Below, piece after piece: positions 1,261 through 20,295 of a stretch of DNA of 40,000 nucleotides. The stretch spans positions 21,810 to 61,809 of the forward strand of contig JBNKFV010000029.1 of the NCBI GenBank assembly GCA_050289485.1, in the 5' to 3' direction. The notes under the pieces are model-generated. The model did not search any database, was not told the DNA's origin, and saw only the letters and a program-made list of their open reading frames with translations. Positions within the stretch are counted from its first letter, which is position 1; each line of letters begins with the position of its first letter. This DNA comes from Cellvibrionaceae bacterium. GTDB lineage: Bacteria > Pseudomonadota > Gammaproteobacteria > Pseudomonadales > Cellvibrionaceae. Made by a program: the position numbers and the translations under genes.

Positions 1261-2769
1261 ATGAATACCGTCGCACATTTTATTAACGGCTCTATTAGCC
1301 TGGGTGAGTCTGCAGAGAGTGCAAGCCCGCGTACGCAAAGCGTGTTTAACCCCGCTACTGGCGAAGTCTCCAAGCAGGTGGCCTTGGCTGGTAAGGCTAC
1401 TGTGGAAGAAGCCATTGCGTCGGCCAATGCGGCTTTTCCGGCTTGGCGAGATACCCCGCCCATTAAACGCGCGCGAATCATGTTCCGTTTTAAAGAATTG
1501 CTGGAAACGCATGCCGACGAAATTGCCGCATTGATCAGCGAAGAGCATGGCAAGATTCATCACGATGCATTGGGTGAGTTCGCCCGTGGTGTTGAAGTGG
1601 TGGAATACGCGTGTGCTGCGCCAGAATTACTCAAAGGTGAGTTCAGTAAAAACGCTGGCCCCGACATTGATTCGTGGAGTGATTTTCAGCCGCTGGGGGT
1701 GGTGGCAGGCATTACACCGTTTAATTTTCCGGCCATGGTGCCCATGTGGATGTTTCCCATGGCATTGGCCTGTGGCAACACGTTTGTATTAAAACCTTCA
1801 GAGCGTGATCCGTCGGCATCGCTGCGCATTGCTGAGCTACTCAAAGAAGCAGGGTTGCCCGATGGGGTATTCAACGTTGTGAATGGCGATAAAGAAGCCG
1901 TTGATACGTTACTGCATGACAAGCGCGTGCAGGCGGTGTCGTTCGTGGGGTCTACCGCGATTGCAAAATATATTTACGCTACTGCTGCTGCCAATGGCAA
2001 GCGCGTACAGGCGCTGGGTGGTGCCAAAAACCACGCGATTGTGATGCCCGATGCCGATATAGACAATGCCGTGAGTGCATTGATGGGTGCGGCGTATGGT
2101 TCTTGTGGCGAACGCTGCATGGCCATCTCGGTCGTGGTTGCTGTGGGTGATGACACCGCCGATGCCTTGGTGGACAAACTGCGCGAGCAATTGGCGACGT
2201 TGAAAGTAGGGCCGGGCACCGACAACAACAACGAAATGGGGCCATTAATTACCCAGCAGCATTTCGACAAGGTAAAAGGTTACATTGCCTCGGGCGTTGA
2301 AGAGGGCGCACAGTTGGTAGTGGATGGCCGCACGCTGAAAGTAGCTGGTTATGAAACCGGTTATTTTCTTGGCGGTACCTTGTTTGATCATGTTTCATCG
2401 GCGATGAAAATTTACCGCGAAGAAATCTTTGGACCGGTGTTGTGCGTTGTGCGTGTAAAAACCATGGAAGAGGCGATGCAACTGATCAACGATCATGAAT
2501 ACGGCAATGGTACGTGCATTTTTACCCGCGATGGTGAAGCCGCACGTTATTTTAGTGATCGCATTCAGGTAGGCATGGTGGGTATTAACGTGCCGCTGCC
2601 AGTACCGGTGGCGTACCACAGTTTTGGTGGCTGGAAAAATTCATTGTTTGGCGATTTACATGCGTACGGCCCCGATGGCGTACGTTTCTATACCCGCCGT
2701 AAAACCGTTACCCAGCGCTGGCCCTCTAGCGGCGTGCGCGAAGGTAAGCACTATTCGTTTCCTAGTTAG
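1261..2769 (+). CDS. mmsA: CoA-acylating methylmalonate/malonate-semialdehyde dehydrogenase
   Basis: 502-aa aldehyde dehydrogenase fold. It has [28 protein letters not shown], the catalytic Cys context GSCGERCMA, and the C-terminal [25 protein letters not shown] typical of MMSDH. It is paired with the transaminase upstream. Confidence 0.9.
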
Positions 2770-3144
2770 TGCCCACGCTCACGAGGTAAGGTTAGTTGTG
2801 GCAAGGCAAGTAAATAGCCACGGTCAATCAGTCGGTAAACTGGTTTGCCGTGCTTCCTTGTTTTAAGCGGTTTAATATGACTGGCTTGCTAAAATAAAAC
2901 CCTTACCCGGTTTCGCAGTGTCATTGTTGGAGAATATTCAGTTGCTCCTGTGTTTCTATACCTTCTGACTATAGGCTATATTTTTAAACTTCATGCAGTC
3001 TTGGCTGGGCTTTCTATCTGTTCAGTGCCTTGAAAAACCAGCAAATGAACAAGACACTGATATTTTGGCTTGGAGAAAATCAGTCTACACTGTAACCAGG
3101 CAGCATTGATGTGTTGGTTTAAGGGGAATTCGCGGGGAGTGTAA

Positions 3145-6100
3145 GTGGCAGCAATCGAAAGGCAGGTGAGCAGATTTGGCGTTGGCCTGATCGTCGCAGT
3201 AATATTTTTTCTCGTGCTGTCGGTGGCACTTTATTCGTTCACTAAGCAGAGTGTCGAGCATGAGGTTCATGCTAATCAACTGGCTGAGCTGGAAGCCAAA
3301 AAACAGTTGATTGTAGCGCGTTTTAACGAGGGCTATAAAGAGGTTGTTTTTCTGTCTAAGGTGCCGCCGGTTGATGGCATTATTCGGGCTACGAAGAACC
3401 AGGGCGTCGACCCTTATGATAAAACCTCTCTCGACGAATGGAAGCGCCGTTTAGAAACCATCTTTCATGCCTACATCCAGTCGCATCCCAGTATTCGCCA
3501 GATTCGCTATATAGGCTATGCCAATGATGGCCTGGAGTTGGTGCGTGTAGAGCGTGAGCAGGGCGCGATTGTTATCGTGCCTGAGCGCAAGCTGCAGGCA
3601 AAAGGAAACCGTAGCTATTTTAAAGAAATAGCAGAACTCGATACTAACAGCCTTTATATTTCTGACTTAGAGCTCAACAAAGAGCACGGCAAGATTCAGT
3701 ATCCGGCATGGCCAACCTACCGTGTTGCCATGAATATTGTTGACGAAAGTTTGCAGCCCTTTGGCTTTGTGATTATTAATTATGATGCGACAGACTTGCT
3801 CGATAGCATCGACGATAGCGAGCAGGGTTACTTCACCTATTTGTTGAATAACAACGAGCAATTTTTACTGCATCACATGCCTGAGTGGGGGTTTGCTTTT
3901 GAAGAGCATGATCGGGCTGGCTGGGGAGATTATTTCTCCAATGCGTTGGTAATGGATTCTACCCAATTCAGTACCACCGTATCTCCAACGGGCGTTGTAA
4001 AACGTTACAGTAGTACCCGTTTAAATGGTCGTTATGCTGGAGGTAAACCGCTCATTCTGGTGGAAAGTATTCCGCAAAATTCGCTGAATAAAATTGTATT
4101 TGATCGCTATATCACTGGGCAAATTGTGTTGCTGGCAGCGTTTTCCATTGCGTTTACTGTTATTTATTTTTACCACCGAGCCTTGATGGAAGGGGTAAAC
4201 CGAAGTCGGCTAACCAAAAAATATCAGGCAATCTTTACCGGTGCACGCGATGCTATTTTAATTTTTGACGGAAAACGGAAGCTGGTTGACGCCAATACGG
4301 CAGCCTTGCAACTTTTTGACCTGTCGCCGACTGCGTTATACGAGGCTAGCTTTAGTCATTTGTTTGGTGATGATGCGTCAACGGTTCGCGATTTACTGGC
4401 AATTTCCCAGGCCGGCGCTTTTACAAGCGAGCAGGAAATGACGATAGGCACAGCAGAGAATGCTCGTATTATTACCATTGCCTTCAGTCAAATTGAGGCA
4501 GATAAAAAAGCAGACTATCACTACGTATGCATTGCTTGTGATGTGACCGACGAACGTGAAGCATCGCAATTAATTGCGAGCACCAATGAGCGTTTGCAGA
4601 TTGAAGTGGAAGCCCGTACCCAAGAGCTTGAAGCCGCCGTAGATCGTGCAGAGCTTGCTACGAAAACCAAAAGTCAATTTCTTGCCAGCATGAGTCACGA
4701 AATTCGAACACCCATGAATGGGGTGTTTGGCATGCTGAATCTGATGCGTCGCGACCCCTTGAGCAAGCGTCAGCTGCGTAATCTGGAGATGGCCGAAGCC
4801 AGCGTGCGTTCGCTAACCGAATTAGTCAACGATATTCTTGATATTTCAAAAATTGAAGCCGGTAAGCTGGATATTGAGACCGCTCAATTTGATTTATGCA
4901 AATTGCTACATTCGTGTGCCACATCGTGCTCGATATTGTTGGCAGATAAACCGGTACTTTTTTTGGTAGATATCAGCGATATCGAGCATGGTTGGGTGCT
5001 GGCTGATTCTAATCGCATTCGCCAGATTATTAACAACCTTTTGGGCAATGCGATTAAATTTACCAGCTTTGGTGAAGTGCGCTTGTACGCCAGTACTCGC
5101 AAAGAAGAGGATGGATCTATCACGCTTTATTGTAGTGTGTCTGATACCGGCGTAGGTATTTCGTCGGAAAAACTGCCCACATTATTTAGCGCGTTTGTAC
5201 AAGAAGATATTGCCACGGCACGTAATTACGGTGGTACAGGCTTAGGCTTGTCTATCTGTAAGCAGTTGTGTGACTTAATGGGGGGGAGTATCGAAGCCAA
5301 GAGCGTGAAAGGTATGGGCAGTATGTTCAGCTTTACACTTCCGCTGCAGTTGCCAAGTAATAGCACGCGTGATGTAAGTTTGCATTCGGCTGAGCCAACC
5401 CGAGTAGCGCTGGCGCTAGATGTAGAGTCATTGCTATCTGTCGTAAACAAAGTATTCAACACATTTGGCCACCAAGTGGAGGAGCTTACCTTTGATCAAC
5501 TGATTCGTGATTTGTCTGGCCACGCCCTCGACGATTTTTATGTGGTGGCAGCTGATTCCCGCATGTATCAGAAGTACGCGGCGCAATTTGAAAAGTACCG
5601 CGCTATGCGCGAAACGCCTTTATTGCTCTTGCTGGTGAATCAAGAATATCAAACGAAAGACAACGATCTTGATGCTAGTAAATTGCCTGCTCATACCCTG
5701 GTACTGGAAACGCCAGTATCGCTGGTGAGTATTGCTGCTGGGTTGAATGCCATGGACTCGGACCGTTTTTGGTTTGAAAGCCAGCGTGTGGGAGCTGATG
5801 CCACTGAAAGGCCTAGTTACGACTTAACAGGCAAAAGCATGCTAGTGGTTGATGATCATCACATTAACCGCGAGGTAATGCGCGGTATTTTGGAAGACTG
5901 CGGCGCGCTAGTGGTTGATGCAAAAGATGGTCAAGAAGCGCTCGATATTTTGTCTTTGCATGAACACAACGATCCGTTTGATCTGGTATTTATGGATTGC
6001 CAAATGCCGGTTATGGATGGGTACCAAGCCACTCGTGCTATTCGCGAAAGTGTTGCGGGCGCGGGCAACAAAGATATACCGATTGTTGCGGTCACGGCGG

Positions 6101-7350: not shown

Positions 7351-7433
7351 CTCCATTCGGTAACCGTTCGACCCACCACATAGCGATGGGCACTGGCTTT
7401 GCGTCCCCGCGTTACCACGGGTTTGCCTTTTCG
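7351..7433 (-). promoter_or_regulatory. c-di-GMP-I (GEMM-I) riboswitch aptamer, copy A
   Basis: The minus strand reads CGAAAAGGCAAAC-CCCGUG-GUAA-CGCGGG-GACGCAAAGCC-AGUGCCCAUCGCUAUGUGGUGGGUCGAACGG-UUACCGAAUGGAG. All conserved GEMM-I blocks are present in the correct order: GGCAAAC, a GNRA-capped hairpin, GGGACGCAAAGCC, P2, GGUUACCGAWGG. Confidence 0.85.
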
Positions 7434-7604
7434 AGGAGCAGGCAGAGCCTTCTCATTCGAAAGTATTGCATGTAACTGGTTAAAAAGTGTGAACTAGAGC
7501 ACGCTCTGTGTCAATTGCTATGACAGCATTTTGCGCCAATTTTTGCCGATATTTTAGCCAGTGAGGTGCCTCAGGCTCCTAAACACTAGCTGTGGCTTTG
7601 TAGT

Positions 7605-10815: not shown

Positions 10816-10890
10816 TCACGATTGAGTGATGGCGTTCTGGCAGGTTTGATTCAACGGCCATCTGATACAAACCAGAGGGTATCTGCCCCG

Positions 10891-10967
10891 CGAACAGGCA
10901 AACTTGTGGTAACACAGGGACGCAAAGCCAGTGCCCAGTCTAATGGGTCGAACGGTTACCGAACGGG
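10891..10967 (+). promoter_or_regulatory. c-di-GMP-I (GEMM-I) riboswitch aptamer, copy B
   Basis: Reads CGAACAGGCAAAC-CUUGUG-GUAA-CACAGG-GACGCAAAGCC-AGUGCCCAGUCUAAUGGGUCGAACGG-UUACCGAACGGG. It has the same conserved blocks as copy A. It is followed by a GCGUCU/AGGCGC hairpin plus U-run (10964-10997) that overlaps the 3' side of the aptamer. Confidence 0.85.
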
Positions 10968-11008
10968 CGTCTGCTTCAATAGGCGCTTACACTTTTTAGT
11001 TGCGAGCG

Positions 11009-11494
11009 ATGACGTTGAAGCGAGATAAGTCTAATCCACGGTTAACCGTTGTCCGTGGGCAAGAGGCGAGCCAGACAACGCAGATTGGTGTTGCCGACCG
11101 GCGCAAAGACGTGCGCTATGTTGTGCAGTTGCCTGCGTGGATCCGCCTTGCGTCGGAATATGATCTGCCAGTGTCTGCCAGCAGTATGCCGGTGACTATC
11201 CCACCCCACGGTAGTGTCGTTAACCTATCCAGCTCTGGACTTTGTTGCATCGTGCCCTTTGAGCAGTTGGGCGATTTAATGCGTATTAAAAACAGAGCCG
11301 ACTGGCGCACCCTGTTACCCGTTGTTATTCGCTTTCAATTACCCGCAAAGCAACTGGTGTCTATTGTGTGTGGTGTTGCCTATGTGCGGCGGGCAAAGGT
11401 CGATCATGCCGAGGTGGGGGTATGTTTTCAGCAGTTTATAACGGGTGAGCAGCAGCTGGCTGAGTATATCGAACACCTTAAGCAACGTTTGTAG
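11009..11494 (+). CDS. PilZ-domain protein (c-di-GMP receptor type)
   Basis: Contains both halves of the PilZ binding signature: RRKDVR (RxxxR) and NLSSSG (D/NxSxxG). ATG at 11009 is preferred over the TTG at 11000, but the start is not well supported by an SD. Confidence 0.8.
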   Translation: MTLKRDKSNPRLTVVRGQEASQTTQIGVADRRKDVRYVVQLPAWIRLASEYDLPVSASSMPVTIPPHGSVVNLSSSGLCCIVPFEQLGDLMRIKNRADWRTLLPVVIRFQLPAKQLVSIVCGVAYVRRAKVDHAEVGVCFQQFITGEQQLAEYIEHLKQRL

Positions 11495-13022: not shown

Positions 13023-13709
13023 CTATTCGTCGTCAGAATCATTGAATAAATGAAAAAGCGCATCTTTTTCATTTTGGTTTACGCTGGAGGTATCGTCTTT
13101 GCGGTGGGTTTTGGCATGGCAGACCTGGTTGCGCCCTTTATGTTTTGCTCGGTATAGCTGTTCATCGGCACGCTTGATCAGCGACTGAGCAGTGTCTTGA
13201 AACGGCTGTTGAAACACTGCTACCCCAATACTGGCCGTTACGGTTAAAGTCTTACCACTCTGGGTTATTACTGGTGTTTCCTTCAGCGTTGTGCGAATAC
13301 GCTCGGCAACTGTGAGACTGGTGAGTAAACTGGTGCCCGGCAAAATAATGGCAAACTCTTCACCCCCGTAACGGCAGGCGATATCGAGGCGGCGTATAGA
13401 AGCACGCAAAATATCGGCAGTATGCTGTAATACTTCGTTGCCGATGTCGTGCCCGTAGGTGTCGTTCACCGATTTGAAGTGGTCAAGATCGAGAAGAATA
13501 AGCGCCGTAGACTGGCCAGTACGCTGCGAACGTTCCAGCTCCTGCTCCAGCGCCTCGGTAAAGTAATGGAAGTTATGCAGATTGGTGAGTGCATCTGTAC
13601 CCACTTGCACTTTGAGCGCATCAACCTGGTTACGTAATGCGATTACTTTTGGTGGCCAGGGGCAGCGTTCACCTGCTGGACACTCTGATTCATTGCCGGG
13701 TTGATCCAC
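13023..13709 (-). CDS. GGDEF-domain diguanylate cyclase with intact I-site
   Basis: Active-site RYGGEEF with RRLD (RxxD) exactly 5 residues upstream. GTG start. The short Cys-containing N-terminus (ECPAGERCPWPP) precedes a coiled-coil-like segment. Confidence 0.85.
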   Translation of the reverse strand: MDQPGNESECPAGERCPWPPKVIALRNQVDALKVQVGTDALTNLHNFHYFTEALEQELERSQRTGQSTALILLDLDHFKSVNDTYGHDIGNEVLQHTADILRASIRRLDIACRYGGEEFAIILPGTSLLTSLTVAERIRTTLKETPVITQSGKTLTVTASIGVAVFQQPFQDTAQSLIKRADEQLYRAKHKGRNQVCHAKTHRKDDTSSVNQNEKDALFHLFNDSDDE

Positions 13710-14721: not shown

Positions 14722-15660
14722 TCACTGAGTTCGTTTTGTTTGTTTCTGAATGTCAAGATCACTCATCAAGCGATTGCGGCCGCTCTCTTTGGCCAAATAC
14801 AGAAACCTATCCGCACGCTGAAGGGTTTCTTCTATATTGTTGTCTTCGGGCAGGGCGGCGGTTAGCCCAAGGCTTAGGGTAAGGTGTATGGGTTTGCCAT
14901 CGTGGCCCATAAAGGGGGTGTTGGCCACGGTATGGCGCAATCGTTCGGCGAATACCATGCCGCCTTCTACTGCTGTATCACTGCAGCACAACACAAACTC
15001 TTCGCCGCCAAAACGCGCAAAAATATCAGATTCACGTTTGTATTCCTGGCAGAGGTTACTGATTTCAGTCAGCACTTTGTCGCCAGACGCATGGCCATAT
15101 TGGTCATTAATACGTTTAAAGTGGTCAATATCAATCATCAGCAGGCACATTGGCCTGTCGTAGCGTTTGCTGCGCGCAAATTCGGCGTTGGCCAACTCAA
15201 AAAAATGCCTTCGGTTAAAGGCACCGGTAAGAGGGTCCTGTGCGGCCAGTGTTTTGAGCTGCTGATTAGTATCTTCCAGTTTTAGCTGCGATTCACGTAG
15301 CCGCAGGGCAGAGCGCACACGGGCTGCCAATATGGGATAAACAAAGGGTTTGGATACGTAGTCGTGTGCACCAAGATCCAGCGCCTCAACAATATCTTTC
15401 GTATCCTCGTTGGCAGAAACCATGATCACGGGAATGTCAGTATAAGCGGGGTTAGCGCGAATTTGCTTGAGGGTTTGTATGCCGTTCATTATCGGCATAA
15501 ACAGGTCTAACAGCACCAGGTCGGGTTGATGCTGCTCAATGGCCTTAAGGCATTGCTCACCGTTTTGTGCTGTATATACTTCGTAGCCTTCATCTTCCAG
15601 CTCAAAACTCAGTAGCTGCAGGTTATCTGCGATGTCGTCGACAATGAGTATTTTGGCCAT
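14722..15660 (-). CDS. Response regulator with GGDEF output (PleD/WspR-like diguanylate cyclase)
   Basis: N-terminal receiver (KILIVDD..DLVLLDLFMPIMNG..DYVSKP). C-terminal RFGGEEF with RESD (RxxD I-site) 5 residues upstream. Confidence 0.9.
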   Translation of the reverse strand: MAKILIVDDIADNLQLLSFELEDEGYEVYTAQNGEQCLKAIEQHQPDLVLLDLFMPIMNGIQTLKQIRANPAYTDIPVIMVSANEDTKDIVEALDLGAHDYVSKPFVYPILAARVRSALRLRESQLKLEDTNQQLKTLAAQDPLTGAFNRRHFFELANAEFARSKRYDRPMCLLMIDIDHFKRINDQYGHASGDKVLTEISNLCQEYKRESDIFARFGGEEFVLCCSDTAVEGGMVFAERLRHTVANTPFMGHDGKPIHLTLSLGLTAALPEDNNIEETLQRADRFLYLAKESGRNRLMSDLDIQKQTKRTQ

Positions 15661-16155: not shown

Positions 16156-16439
16156 CGTACTGAGAGCGCAAAGCAGCGACTTGTCGGAAGGCGATGTATT
16201 AATGGGATTACCTTTTTATAAACGGCTGTAAGTGTTTGTGAAGTCTAGCAAATACCGAGTAAATAGACAGGTGGTGTGTGCACTGCAACAATGCTCACAA
16301 AAATGAGGCCAATAAGGTACGTTTGGTATTGGGTAAGAATAGACAGAAAACCGAACCGCGAGCAATAACGCCTCCCGTTATCAAAACCATAATCAGCCTA
16401 AGCCTTGATGGCAGGGTGCTAGAATCATTTTTAGATAAC

Positions 16440-16974
16440 CTGTTTTTTATACACATATTTTTAAGGTGCAAAAAACGTGCTCATTTCTACCAAAATGGCG
16501 CCTGAAGTTTGCTCAATTTTTCGATTAGTGCTAAAAAGTAATCCTTACCTTTCAATGGGTTACCCAAACCCTTGCCCGAAATAGTGCGCAAAGGGAACCA
16601 GAAAAACGCGCACGCTCGTTTTTCCAGAACGAAGGAAATAGAAAACAAAGAAAGCCACCGCTGGATACAACATTAGTTGGCGTTTGCACACAATCACCAT
16701 GTTGACGCGACGGTTTCCGGACCGGCCTTGTACGGACGCGTTTTCAGACAAGGAGTGGACGATTCTTTGGCGAATAAAAAAGAAAGCATCCCCGCCGGCT
16801 ACTCCGCCCGGTTTACGCGAAGTTACGCGTATGTTGGCCGAGCTTGGAGGCTTTTTAGCGCGTAAGGGCGATGGTGAGCCTGGCGTCAAAACGATCTGGC
16901 AAGGGTATGATAAGCTGTTACATTATATTGAGGCTGCGGATATCTTGGGGTATAAAAATATGTATAAAACAGAG
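16440..16974 (+). mobile_element. Internally deleted IS4-family (Tn5/IS50-like) element with both terminal inverted repeats
   Basis: Left IR is CTGTTTTTTATACACATAT (16440-16458). Right IR (reverse complement of 16956-16974) is CTCTGTTTTATACATATTT. Both resemble the Tn5 end CTGTCTCTTATACACATCT. Only about 535 bp lie between the ends. The flanking 9-mers (TTAGATAAC and TGCGGGCGT) differ, so there is no target duplication. Confidence 0.7.
16684..16974 (+). pseudogene. C-terminal remnant of a Tn5-like IS4-family transposase
   Basis: The translation PDRPCTDAFSDKEWTILW...PPGLREVTRMLAELGGFLARKGDGEPGVKTIWQGYDKLLHY matches the conserved C-terminal roughly 90 aa of IS4/Tn5-type transposases. The N-terminal roughly 350 aa, including the DDE region, are absent. 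Confidence 0.75.
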
Positions 16975-16994
16975 TGCGGGCGTTACATGTGCGA

Positions 16995-17669
16995 ATGAAA
17001 ATCATCTTACTTCCTGGGCTTGATGGTACGGGGGCGCTTTTCGATGCCTTAGTAAATAACTTACGAGAAGGCGTTGATACGGAGGTTTTGACCTATGAAA
17101 AAATTGATAGTCTTACGTACACTGATCAGGCAGAGGAAATAGGTCATAGAATAAAAGATACGGATGTTGTCTTGGTCGGAGAATCCTATTCAGGACGAGT
17201 AGTCTACGAGCTGAACCAAATTTTGGGGGAAAGAGTGAAAGCAGTTGTATTTATAGCTAGTTTTATTTCGTGTCCGTCAAAGGTAGCTAAGCTTGCTGGT
17301 TACATTCCTATTGGGCTATTAAAGCCAAATTTTATTAACAAAAGCCTGTTAAATATATTCGGGTTTAATCGTCAAGCAACACCTACACTAATTGATAGTG
17401 TGTTTTCCTCTATAAGTTCGGCTAATAAACAAAAATTAAAAGCTAGGCTGAAAAATATTTCAGGCCTTACTAAATCGCAAGTAAAGATATATAGTCCAGT
17501 AACTTATATACGTCCAAACCGTGACCTACTAGTAGGTCGTGGCTCGGTAGAACATATTAAGTCTTTATGCGTTAATTTCAAAGAAGTTACGGTATCTGGC
17601 GGTCATTTTATAGCTCAATCGGAGCCAGAAGAATGTGCAAAGGTAATTTTAAATGCAGCAAGCATGTAA
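16995..17669 (+). CDS. Alpha/beta-hydrolase fold protein (cassette 1)
   Basis: MKIILLPGLDGTG N-terminus and the nucleophile-elbow-like VLVGESYSGRV. The ATG at 16995 overlaps the read-through stop of the transposase remnant. The gene is visibly AT-richer than its surroundings. Confidence 0.75.
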   Translation: MKIILLPGLDGTGALFDALVNNLREGVDTEVLTYEKIDSLTYTDQAEEIGHRIKDTDVVLVGESYSGRVVYELNQILGERVKAVVFIASFISCPSKVAKLAGYIPIGLLKPNFINKSLLNIFGFNRQATPTLIDSVFSSISSANKQKLKARLKNISGLTKSQVKIYSPVTYIRPNRDLLVGRGSVEHIKSLCVNFKEVTVSGGHFIAQSEPEECAKVILNAASM

Positions 17670-17756
17670 CAAAACAATCAACCGGACTCCGCTAAGCGTG
17701 GTTCGCTTCGCTCACAATACCACGCTTAGCTACGCTCGGTTATTGTGGCGTTAAGT
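17664..17756 (+). repeat. attC-like recombination site 1
   Basis: It starts at the stop codon (TGTAACAAAAC) and ends in GTTAAGT, which fits the GTTRRRY core. The outer arms ACAATCAACCG / CGGTTATTGT pair with one unpaired base. The inner arms GCTAAGCGTGGT / ACCACGCTTAGC (17691-17702 / 17719-17730) are a perfect 12 bp. Confidence 0.6.
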
Positions 17757-17774: not shown

Positions 17775-18272
17775 GTGAGTAAGTATCAAATTGCCCAGCT
17801 CAACATTGCCACACTAATGGCTCCAATCGATTCGCCTCAGCTTTCAGATTTCGTCGCGAATCTGGAGAGGATTAACGCGTTGGCTGAGGACTCGCCTGGT
17901 TTCGTCTGGCGCTTGCAAACCGACGAAGGTGATGCCACCGGCATTGATTATTTTGGCTCCGATAAGATCGTGAATCTTTCTCTCTGGGATTCGGTCGAGG
18001 CTTTGCATAATTACGTTTATCGGTCTGCCCACGTCGAGATCATGCGTCGCAAGAAGGAGTGGTTCCACAAAATGGGAGAGGCATACATGGTTCTTTGGTG
18101 GGTGCCTGCCGGTCACATTCCCTCAGTCGAAGAAGCGGCGCAAAAGCTAATCATCCTGCGAGAGCACGGACCAACCGCCGAAGCTTTCACGTTCAAAAAA
18201 GCCTTCTCAGCTCCCAGTGAATTCGACGGTGTGCCAAACGATACTTTGGGTGGTGAATGTCCCGCCACTTAA
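17775..18272 (+). CDS. DUF3291-family protein (cassette 2)
   Basis: GTG at 17775 is preceded by GGGAGG. The sequence SKYQIAQLNIATLMAPIDSPQLSDFVANLERINALAEDSPGFVWRLQ matches my memory of the DUF3291 family. Confidence 0.75.
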   Translation: MSKYQIAQLNIATLMAPIDSPQLSDFVANLERINALAEDSPGFVWRLQTDEGDATGIDYFGSDKIVNLSLWDSVEALHNYVYRSAHVEIMRRKKEWFHKMGEAYMVLWWVPAGHIPSVEEAAQKLIILREHGPTAEAFTFKKAFSAPSEFDGVPNDTLGGECPAT

Positions 18273-18346
18273 CAAATCAATTAAGTTCGTTCCGGCCTAC
18301 GGCCTCCACCGGACGGCCCTGTCGGGCCGCCGCTTATTTTCGGCGT
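18268..18346 (+). repeat. attC-like / terminator-like structured element 2, interrupted at its 3' side by the intron
   Basis: It begins ACTTAACAAATC, where ACTTAAC is a perfect RYYYAAC. It contains the hairpin CGGACGGCCC-tgtc-GGGCCGCCG followed by CTTATTTT. A possible displaced core, ATTAGGC, lies at 19788-19794 just after the intron. The assignment as attC is uncertain. Confidence 0.35.
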
Positions 18347-19783
18347 GTGTGCCAGACATGGCATTTAACTAGAGAGGTGCAAGTCCTCTTACCAGGTATT
18401 CGCAGAGCCGAAGGTTAGCCAAAGGGCAAGGTTATTGCCGCGAGGTAATGGCTGAACCGAATCAAACCTCCTTGTTAATGCAACGTATCGTAGAAAGGAC
18501 AAACCTACAACGAGCATTAAAACAAGTTCAACGCAATAAAGGCGCCCCCGGTGTTGACGGTATGACGGTAAGCCAATTACCGAACTACCTAAAACAACAC
18601 TGGCCGCAACTGCGCGAGCAACTGGTTACGGGACGATACAAACCGCAACCGGTGAAACGCGTAGAAATTCCTAAAGCCAACGGCAAAATGCGTAAACTCG
18701 GGATACCTGCTGTGGTAGATCGATTTATACAGCAAGCCATCGCACAAGTACTCAGCGGGCACTGGGAAACCGTATTCCACCCGAACAGCTTTGGGTTTCA
18801 TCCCAACAAATCAGCACACCAAGCGATTCGAAGCGTGCAGCACTTTGCACGAGACGGGTATCGCATCGTGGTTGATCTGGATCTGGCGAGCTTCTTTGAC
18901 GAAGTGAACCACGATCGTTTAATGGCGACGCTCAAACGCACACACCCGGAAAACGATGTTCTACGGTTAATCAACCGTTACCTGAAAGCGCCAGTGCAAA
19001 TGCGCGATCAGAACGTAGCATCAACAAAAGGTGTCCCACAAGGTGGACCGCTATCCCCGTTGCTTGCCAATATTGTGCTTAACGAACTGGACTGGGAATT
19101 AGAGCAGCGACAGCTACGATTCGCACGCTACGCCGATGACTGCCAAATACTGGTGGGTAGTTATCGCGCTGGCGAACGTATCATGGCAAGCCTGACGCGC
19201 TTTATCGAGAAAACACTGAAGCTCAAAGTGAACGACGAGAAAAGCGCGGTGGCGGCGGTACATAAGCGAAACTTTCTGGGTTTTACGCTGGCCCGCAAGG
19301 ATAAGCGGATAAAAGTCAGCAAACAATCCCTCGCGAAATTGAAGGCAACGGTGCGTACTGTCACCCGCCGAACACGAGGCCATTCGTTTCAACACATCCT
19401 TGACGAGTTAAAGAAAAGCCTGCTTGGTTGGAAAGCGTACTTTGACATCAGCGAAGTACTGAGCCCTCTGAAAGATATGGACAAATGGATTCGGCGTAAA
19501 TTGCGGTGCTATCTATGGAAGCAGTGGGGAAGATCGGGCTATCGACGTTTAAGACGGTTAGGTGTTGATAGGCTGCTGGCCTGGAACACGGCTAAATCGG
19601 CCCACGGTCCTTGGCGTCTGAGCAAAAGCCCCGCGCTTTACTACGCGCTACCAAACAGATACTTTAGGAACTTGGGGCTGCCTGAATTGGCGACAAGGAC
19701 AAATTGATGATTTGAACCGCCGTGGTACGTGACCCGTATGCCCGGTGATGTGGGAGGAGAGGTGTCGTGAGGTGCCTCCCTAT
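18347..19783 (+). mobile_element. Group IIC intron (apparently with a truncated 5' ribozyme portion)
   Basis: The 5' end GUGUGCCAGACAUGG...GGUGCAAGUCC resembles the Oceanobacillus iheyensis IIC intron 5' end (GUGUGCCCGGCAUGG...GGUGAGAGUCC, recalled from memory). The 3' end GAACCGCCGUGGUACGUGACCCGUAUGCCCGGUGAUGUG is domain V-like with a CGC triad. It is followed by the domain VI hairpin GGGAGG..CCUCCCUAU. The element encloses an RT/maturase ORF. Confidence 0.75.
18448..19707 (+). CDS. Group II intron reverse transcriptase/maturase (no endonuclease domain)
   Basis: RT blocks: RNKGAPGVDGMT, RKLGIPAVVDRFIQQA, SFGFHPNKSAHQA, DLDLASFFDEVNHD, GVPQGGPLSPLLANIVLNELD, RYADDCQILV. The maturase X region is LLGWKAYFDIS..WIRRKLRCYLWKQW. 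The 419-aa size fits class C. Confidence 0.92.
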   Translation: MAEPNQTSLLMQRIVERTNLQRALKQVQRNKGAPGVDGMTVSQLPNYLKQHWPQLREQLVTGRYKPQPVKRVEIPKANGKMRKLGIPAVVDRFIQQAIAQVLSGHWETVFHPNSFGFHPNKSAHQAIRSVQHFARDGYRIVVDLDLASFFDEVNHDRLMATLKRTHPENDVLRLINRYLKAPVQMRDQNVASTKGVPQGGPLSPLLANIVLNELDWELEQRQLRFARYADDCQILVGSYRAGERIMASLTRFIEKTLKLKVNDEKSAVAAVHKRNFLGFTLARKDKRIKVSKQSLAKLKATVRTVTRRTRGHSFQHILDELKKSLLGWKAYFDISEVLSPLKDMDKWIRRKLRCYLWKQWGRSGYRRLRRLGVDRLLAWNTAKSAHGPWRLSKSPALYYALPNRYFRNLGLPELATRTN

Positions 19784-19813
19784 CCCGATTAGGCAGACAA
19801 AAGGAGAATCAGG

Positions 19814-20215
19814 ATGGCTTTGCCAATCACTTCATTACTAACGGGCATCTTTATGTTACTTATGGTGCCTTTGAGTCTTCAAATCTCGATAAGCCGCGCA
19901 GAGATCGGCGGTATGTCTGGTGGTCTCACATTTGGCGATGGTGGGGATGAATCTCTGCGCCGCAAGATCAGGGCACATGGCAATTTCATCGAGTACGCTC
20001 CCGCGGCACTTATTGCACTCGGTCTCGTTGAATACGGCGGAGGAGAGAAAACTCTCGTGATCGGTTTTGCTGGTGCTTTCCTTATCAGTAGGCTGATGCA
20101 TGCAGGTGGAATGCTCTACACCTCCACACCGCTCCTTCGTGGTATAGGCATGCTCATACAGCACGTCGCTTTTATTATCGCTGGCGGTTGGCTTGTACAG
20201 CAAGTGGCTGCGTAA
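19814..20215 (+). CDS. MAPEG-family inner membrane protein (YecN-like; cassette 3)
   Basis: FGDGGDESLRRKIRAHGNFIEYAPAALIALGLVEYGG closely parallels E. coli YecN (YGDGGFSELQSAIRIHGNAVEYIPIAI..., from memory). An AGGAG SD lies 8 nt upstream. Confidence 0.75.
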   Translation: MALPITSLLTGIFMLLMVPLSLQISISRAEIGGMSGGLTFGDGGDESLRRKIRAHGNFIEYAPAALIALGLVEYGGGEKTLVIGFAGAFLISRLMHAGGMLYTSTPLLRGIGMLIQHVAFIIAGGWLVQQVAA

Positions 20216-20295
20216 CAAAGCCAAGCACAATTCATGTTAAAAACACGCATGGGCTGGGCCTCGCTGACGCTCGGCATGTGTTGGCTGTGTTAGGC
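20210..20295 (+). repeat. attC-like recombination site 3
   Basis: TAACAAAGCCAAGCACAATTCATG pairs with CATGTGTTGGCTGTGTTAGGC, leaving unpaired G and ATT bases in the way attC extrahelical bases do. It ends in GTTAGGC, a perfect GTTRRRY, at 20289-20295. Confidence 0.55.

Follow-up and report, generated by a model that had tools for sequence, protein, structure and literature searches.

An internally deleted group IIC intron at an attC site of a Cellvibrionaceae gene cassette cluster

Bacterial group IIC introns such as GsI-IIC, E. rectale IIC, O.i.I1, and B.h.I1 encode a reverse transcriptase (RT)/maturase without an endonuclease domain, carry a CGC triad in domain V, and insert between genes just 3' of a DNA hairpin, with an intron-binding site (IBS) 1 of 3–4 nt and an IBS3 of 1 nt. 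Introns of the IIC-attC lineage (S.ma.I2, E.c.I7, Kl.pn.I1) lodge in attC sites near the conserved core, on the attC bottom strand at TTGT/T of R'' and antisense to the cassettes (PMC3001079, PMC7923331; the slash marks the insertion point here and below), and a passage of PMC7923331 cites one top-strand IIC intron in an Enterobacter cloacae integron (Rodriguez-Martinez et al. 2012, J Bacteriol 194:150, as cited there). The fragmented introns UHB.F1, H.ha.F1, and H.ha.F2 (PMC7923331) are decayed, immobile copies in cassette arrays that are 5'-truncated or have a broken or missing RT. We analysed a stretch of 40,000 nt from a Cellvibrionaceae bacterium (assembly GCA_050289485.1, contig JBNKFV010000029.1, positions 21,810 to 61,809; hereafter the window), in which a group IIC intron occupies an attC site between a DUF3291 and a MAPEG gene cassette. 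This intron shares with the bacterial IIC introns the RT without an endonuclease domain, the intergenic position 3' of a DNA hairpin, the short IBS1 and IBS3, and the CGC triad. Unlike them, it lacks intron nt 102–495; its full-length relatives measure about 1.84 kb.

We consider it very probable that the element is an intron of a top-strand attC-homing IIC lineage that sits in the attC site of the DUF3291 cassette and has lost 394 nt between two 9-bp repeats. Its parts are listed below in window coordinates, with the evidence that defines them; L057 is the locus of its closest relative.

18347–19789, forward strand: internally deleted group IIC intron of 1443 nt; boundaries from family alignments and the end of the RF00029 alignment
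18347–18447, forward strand: retained intron nt 1–101, comprising the GUGUG 5' end and the first domain I hairpins; alignment to L057
18448–18456, forward strand: deletion junction with the lone copy of ATGGCTGAA; pairwise alignment to L057
18448–19707, forward strand: open reading frame (ORF) of the RT/maturase, 419 aa, with YADD and without an endonuclease domain; Pfam, TIGR04416
19717–19748, forward strand: domain V, with a CGC triad that includes a G.U pair and a 2-nt bulge; RF00029, covariation
19751–19787, forward strand: domain VI, whose loop is GUGA and whose branch-point A (19782) is bulged; fold and covariation
19790–19794, forward strand: start of the 3' exon, TAGGC; sequence and family alignments

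The L057 intron (positions 2506–4342, 1837 nt) lies in a Cellvibrionaceae metagenome-assembled genome and encodes an RT that is 91% identical to that of the window. The two introns are collinear from GTGTGCC through intron nt 101, and the alignment is taken up again with the first ORF codon, leaving a single gap of 394 nt. In L057, exact copies of ATGGCTGAA form both edges of the gap, at 2607–2615 within domain I and at 3001–3009 where the ORF starts. Where L057 has two copies of this 9-bp repeat the window has one, the typical mark of a microhomology deletion. Of the family members that were checked, L057 alone has the exact pair; in the others the domain I copy is GGGTCTGAAGG or the ORF begins differently. 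The preliminary description of this locus, made from the sequence letters without database searches, had proposed an internal deletion fusing early domain I to an intact RT ORF, and the single gap at a 9-bp repeat bears this out, the accompanying loss of splicing being a deduction.

In structural terms, what the deletion removed (intron nt 102–495) is the greater part of domain I, the whole of domains II and III, and domain IV on its 5' side. The lost segment corresponds to the RF02001 match minus its first hairpin, the RF01998 match, and an A-rich stretch 5' of the ORF. It includes a hairpin loop, GCACGUGA (at about intron nt 184–191), that is able to pair with the invariant exon CGU; the loop is a putative exon-binding site (EBS) 1 and the exon CGU the putative IBS1. 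None of the Rfam domain I–IV models matched the window at the gathering score, nor at E ≤ 10 over 2.8 kb, so that the covariance-model check for domains I–III suggested in the preliminary description came out as a deletion predicts. RF02001 (117–132 bits) and RF01998 (44–60 bits) matched upstream of the ORF in all eight relatives tested. By the Rfam matches and the gap relative to L057, a complete domain I–IV ribozyme core is absent from the window and present in the relatives.

A scan of one genome per species yielded 80 loci encoding relatives of the RT. In all relatives with enough flanking sequence (60 or more), the intron 5' end is 430–700 nt from the ORF and the total intron length is 1817–2039 nt, compared with 1443 nt in the window. 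The three closest relatives (RTs 91, 89, and 83% identical) are all full length, the second and third of them with 494 and 490 nt before the ATG. For the window, the preliminary description had given about 100 nt between the intron 5' end and the ATG at 18448, and the distance is exactly 101 nt; only 175 nt separate the end of the DUF3291 ORF from the start of the RT. It had also assigned the 5' nucleotides to the start of domain I alone, in agreement with the 98 of 101 bases that match L057. These comparisons bear on the idea, raised in the same description, of an unusually minimal architecture, i.e. a functional group II ribozyme with only about 100 nt upstream of the ORF. Such a ribozyme would fit the intact domain V, domain VI, 5' GUGUG, and RT, but the 101 nt are collinear with the start of a normal domain I in the relatives and end at a clean gap of 394 nt, the short form is absent from the rest of the family, and all relatives carry the full 5' ribozyme. 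The deleted part would moreover be needed: no group II intron is known to do without J2/3, domain III, and the EBS loops. We therefore give a minimal ribozyme next to no credence; the copy is a case of ordinary mobile-element decay.

The exact RT protein was found in six contigs, and two GenBank and two Logan assemblies are among the matches listed. The order DUF3291–RT–MAPEG is the same in all four of these other assemblies (in which the DUF3291 protein is called as 165 aa), and the 1.7 kb around the element are 100% identical in three of them, while two bases are different in the fourth, close to the end of a contig. An assembly artefact, in which the two 9-bp repeats were collapsed, would explain why the breakpoints fall in a short direct repeat. 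The same junction, however, occurs in both GenBank assemblies and in the two Logan assemblies, which were made from separate runs, and 9 bases are far below assembler k-mer sizes, which makes an artefact highly improbable.

The retained parts of the ribozyme have hardly diverged. The 5' part is identical to L057 (2506–2606) at 98 of 101 positions, two of the three differences keeping their hairpin paired, and the 3' part at 79 of 82. Between the same two RT ORFs, 45% of synonymous sites differ (pS), with a synonymous distance (dS) of 0.69 and a ratio of non-synonymous to synonymous change (dN/dS) of 0.08. Ribozyme parts that are about 97% identical while synonymous sites differ by 45% date the deletion as recent, and by this comparison the ribozyme was under selection for nearly the whole time since the split from L057. 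At columns that are at least 95% conserved in 50 sequences, the 5' part has one private change (at 18356), with zero to four in intact relatives. Domains V and VI have one as well, a G to A change at 19748, which breaks the closing C-G pair of domain V; the pair is formed, with G, in all 31 other family sequences. This change could be a first sign of relaxed selection after the deletion, although a single change proves nothing.

The RT ORF matches RVT_1 and GIIM in Pfam as well as TIGR04416 (402 bits, cut-off 300), and thus has both a group II-type RT domain and an X/maturase domain. In a ranking against PDB, the RTs of GsI-IIC (E 1.4e-117) and of the E. rectale IIC intron (E 3.5e-99) matched strongly, the R. 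intestinalis and E. rectale IIC RT domains were also among the best relatives, and RTs from outside class C were far weaker (IIA LtrA about 1e-35 [7e-35], IIB about 1e-33); the assignment of the RT to class C rests on this similarity ranking. Insertion follows a DNA hairpin (18314–18329) and the short exon contacts CGT/T are invariant, as expected for class C. On the strength of the RT ranking, the CGC triad of domain V, and a target 3' of a hairpin, all read from sequence, the element classifies as a group IIC intron.

Both intron ends obey the 5' GUGYG and 3' AY rule, with GUGUG at 18347 and GAU ending at 19789, and are fixed by about 60 independent insertions. The 5' end given in the preliminary description, GTGTGCC at 18347, agrees with the alignment to L057 and about 60 family members. 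A start two bases earlier (GTGTGTG) was ruled out because only the boundaries 18347 and 19789 restore GTTRRRY at the exon junction. At the 3' end, homology between the window and L057, as with all other relatives, ends after CCCGAT, and the intron is for this reason delimited as 18347–19789. The 3' side had previously been described as a domain V-like element, a domain VI hairpin, and a terminal CUAU at 19783; both domains are real, but the intron ends with CCCGAU at 19789, and the A of CUAU is the branch-point A at 19782, 7 nt before the 3' end.

The evidence for the two domains is structural. RF00029 aligns end to end with 19715–19789 at 20.2 bits (gathering score 40; 25.8 bits for the L057 equivalent), a match that emerged only when 131 nt were searched alone. 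Across 32 distinct family sequences, 98.7% of the cells in the domain V and VI helices are paired and 11 pairs are changed on both sides, with eight such pairs in domain VI. None of 500 shuffles reached these values and slid controls came nowhere near them; this covariation rules out that the domain V-like string is a chance match.

The intron lies in a small cassette cluster, the features of which are the following.

16684–16998, forward strand: Tn5/IS4-type transposase remnant that retains only the C-terminal dimerisation domain (Pfam Dimer_Tnp_Tn5, E 1.5e-15)
16974–17669, forward strand: cassette 1 ORF, alpha/beta-hydrolase-like (weak Abhydrolase_1 and Abhydrolase_6 matches), followed by attC1
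17664–17756, no strand assigned: attC1, ATGTAAC ... GTTAAGT (sequence; long imperfect hairpin pairing the ends, z = -3.8)
17775–18272, forward strand: cassette 2 ORF, DUF3291, complete (Pfam E 8.6e-62, profile positions 1–138 of 139)
18267–18346, forward strand: 5' part of attC2, which is the 5' exon, with the inverse core ACTTAAC, a GC hairpin (18314–18329) plus T-run, and GGCGT at its end
19814–20215, forward strand: cassette 3 ORF, MAPEG family (Pfam MAPEG, E 1e-19), with its own AGGAG at 19802–19806
20210–20295, no strand assigned: attC3, GCGTAAC ... GTTAGGC (sequence; the fold pairs both ends)

The cluster thus consists of three short ORFs in one orientation, and downstream of each lies an attC-like site of the form RYYYAAC ... 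GTTRRRY, as in a cassette array, and attC1 and attC3 fold as the usual long hairpin. Joined, the exons of the intron read TTATTTTCGGCGT/TAGGCAGAC (GGCGT/TAGGC) and contain the attC core GTTAGGC (GTTRRRY). The core of attC2 is restored by the GT at 18345–18346 together with TAGGC, and the intron sits between the GT and the T. The GC hairpin and T-run that had been noted as the intron target are present at 18314–18340; their identity needs correction, as they form the middle of an attC site. That the DUF3291 ORF is intact up to 18272, as also stated before, is supported by its match to Pfam positions 1–138 of 139. At the left edge of the cluster the transposase remnant directly adjoins cassette 1 and reaches into its predicted start, and the stretch 16200–16680 has no convincing ORF. 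No integrase domain was found in the 23 window ORFs scanned by Pfam, a scan that left aside about a dozen other non-overlapping ORFs of at least 110 aa, none of which lies within 5 kb of the cassettes. Within this scope, and judging from sequence features, the cluster would be a small CALIN (cluster of attC sites lacking integron-integrases) next to a transposase remnant.

The insertion pattern of the window is that of its whole clade. The 5' exon ends with CGT in all of the about 60 distinct insertion sites, with variable sequence further upstream, and the 3' exon begins with T in all of them except one (L029, C), mostly as TAG, TAT, or TGR. On the insertion strand the upstream palindrome has YAACAA at its distal end, which marks this strand as the attC top strand, and in 44 of 49 distinct insertions the intron closely follows the end of an ORF in the same orientation. 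Two full-length relatives with RTs 63–66% identical, at 3499–5336 of L081 (plasmid pR148) and 3509–5348 of L082 (pPp47), reside in clinical class 1 integrons, both at GT/T of the attC core. The pR148 intron is inserted in the aadA1 attC at CAAGCGT/TAGAT, and its ltrA reads the same way as qacL, blaOXA-10, aadA1, and qacEdelta1; that of pPp47 lies in an attC 3' of aac(6')-Ib4 and is likewise in sense.

Like the IIC-attC introns, the window intron is lodged in an attC near the conserved core, a likeness judged by the site and not by the RT clade. Unlike theirs, its clade uses the top strand at CGT/T of R' in sense orientation, and the canonical rule of antisense insertion at TTGT/T of R'', on the bottom strand, does not apply to it. 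The preliminary description had stated that attC-associated IIC introns are usually antisense, which holds for the canonical lineage (PMC3001079, PMC7923331). The sense orientation is no peculiarity of this copy: sense, top-strand insertion at CGT/T is the rule for the whole clade, class 1 integrons included. Canonical antisense IIC-attC introns were also sought among the plasmid matches; H21 and H24 lie outside integrons.

How the 394 nt were lost can be described at base resolution. Recombination or slippage between the ATGGCTGAA copy in domain I and that at the RT ORF start would have removed the segment between them, by either of two routes. DNA replication could have slipped between the 9-bp repeats after the intron had inserted, or the RT could have jumped from one repeat to the other while copying intron RNA during retromobility, producing a copy that was dead on arrival; the data fit both routes equally well. 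The copy belongs to a large and widespread IIC lineage that homes to attC in the top-strand, sense orientation; that this lineage is undescribed as such, with the window copy perhaps having arisen dead on arrival by an RT jump over the structured domain I–III core, is possible yet in our view doubtful.

Several observations weigh against the interpretation of the locus as a splicing-dead deletion derivative in an attC site, or limit it. The loss of splicing is inferred rather than observed on RNA. The minimum free energy (MFE) fold of the reconstituted attC2 has no canonical end-to-end pairing on either strand, and attC2 is by this measure a weaker attC than its two neighbours. Metagenome scans gave no hits, either with the empty site CGCTTATTTTCGGCGTTAGGCAGACAAAAGG or with the domain I hairpin joined to the repeat, a query that would catch both the parent and the deleted form; as neither an empty site nor a full-length allele of the locus was found, the data are compatible with a deletion before as well as after insertion. 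The analysis covers 40 kb of the genome.

As for the intron itself, an RNA without most of domain I, J2/3, and domain III would form no catalytic core, would neither splice nor reverse-splice, and would be immobile; this predicted loss of splicing and mobility follows from established group II intron biology. The remaining 1.44 kb would act as an additional RT gene locked in place between two cassettes. In the MFE fold, the AUG of the RT is within the stem of the 10-bp retained domain I hairpin (18430–18453), and the ORF has been stripped of its natural domain IVa context, the RT binding site being deleted. No sigma-70-like promoter was found on the forward strand near the RT ORF. With the AUG in a hairpin, domain IVa lost, and no nearby promoter on this strand, expression of the RT would depend on read-through from upstream.

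The RT could still be of use if it had been domesticated for the host, if it served sibling introns in trans, or if the missing domain I–III piece were itself supplied in trans. A precedent for the last is psaA intron 1 of Chlamydomonas, a tripartite intron with breaks in domains I and IV, for which the tscA RNA supplies a piece in trans; the breakpoints in the window are in the same two domains. The ORF is also intact, with YADD, and its dN/dS relative to L057 is low. This low ratio, however, reflects the history before the deletion, because the deletion is recent; the AUG is buried in the 10-bp hairpin, the domain IVa binding site of the RT is gone, and no trans-acting partner is known in the 40-kb window. 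We see a slim chance for any of these uses.

The consequences for the neighbouring cassettes differ from those previously suggested. In the DNA, the insertion interrupts the R' core of attC2, and DUF3291 and MAPEG probably now recombine as a single unit. The preliminary description had put forward that an intron unable to splice would polar-block the MAPEG cassette, which is not supported: the intron is intergenic, the AGGAG of MAPEG lies 7 nt before its ATG, and no terminator-like site was found on the forward strand inside the intron. The only forward-strand terminator-like site near the intron is the upstream attC hairpin, which is there with or without the intron.

Other decayed copies were recovered in the same family. 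A close relative of the L057 intron (2869–4541 of L096) is truncated at about intron nt 163 and has its RT split into ORFs of 173 and 152 aa; its surroundings are a cassette-like array that includes PIN and PhdYeFM toxin-antitoxin genes. An ORF-less copy of 402 nt (3397–3798 of L054), located at a CGT/T site 3' of an attC-like palindrome, keeps domains I and VI and lacks the ORF and the 5' half of domain V, and is thus another internal-deletion derivative. From these two copies, decay is common in the family. Additional isolated domain V–VI copies were seen close to full-length introns (1449–1522 and 1733–1805 of L045, 565–640 of L033) and may be further fragments or tandem insertions. Like UHB.F1, H.ha.F1, H.ha.F2, and the copies in L096 and L054, the window intron is a decayed, immobile copy in a cassette array. 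Those copies are 5'-truncated or have a broken or missing RT, whereas in the window the RT is whole and the core was lost by one microhomology deletion.

Elsewhere in the window, the only Rfam matches at the gathering score were two c-di-GMP riboswitches. These c-di-GMP-I aptamers (7356–7437, reverse strand, 60.8 bits; 10887–10963, forward strand, 53.4 bits) flank gcvP, and each precedes an ORF of 164 aa. The ORF at 11000–11494 has a PilZ domain; the two 164-aa ORFs were considered as paralogues, and their comparison says that they are not. GGDEF genes are located nearby at 13023–13709 and 14722–15660.

The window thus provides a base-resolved case of the death of a mobile intron, in which a microhomology deletion removed the ribozyme and stranded the RT gene. 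For genome annotation it follows that a perfect match to a group II RT/maturase does not equal a functional intron. The pattern of the clade is opposite to the orientation stressed in the reviewed literature, and some of its members reside in clinical class 1 integrons. Sense insertion in the top strand, one base from the integrase crossover point, implies that these introns would be transcribed with, and spliced from, cassette mRNAs. If the lineage is undescribed as such, it would be a more notable result than the deleted copy itself.

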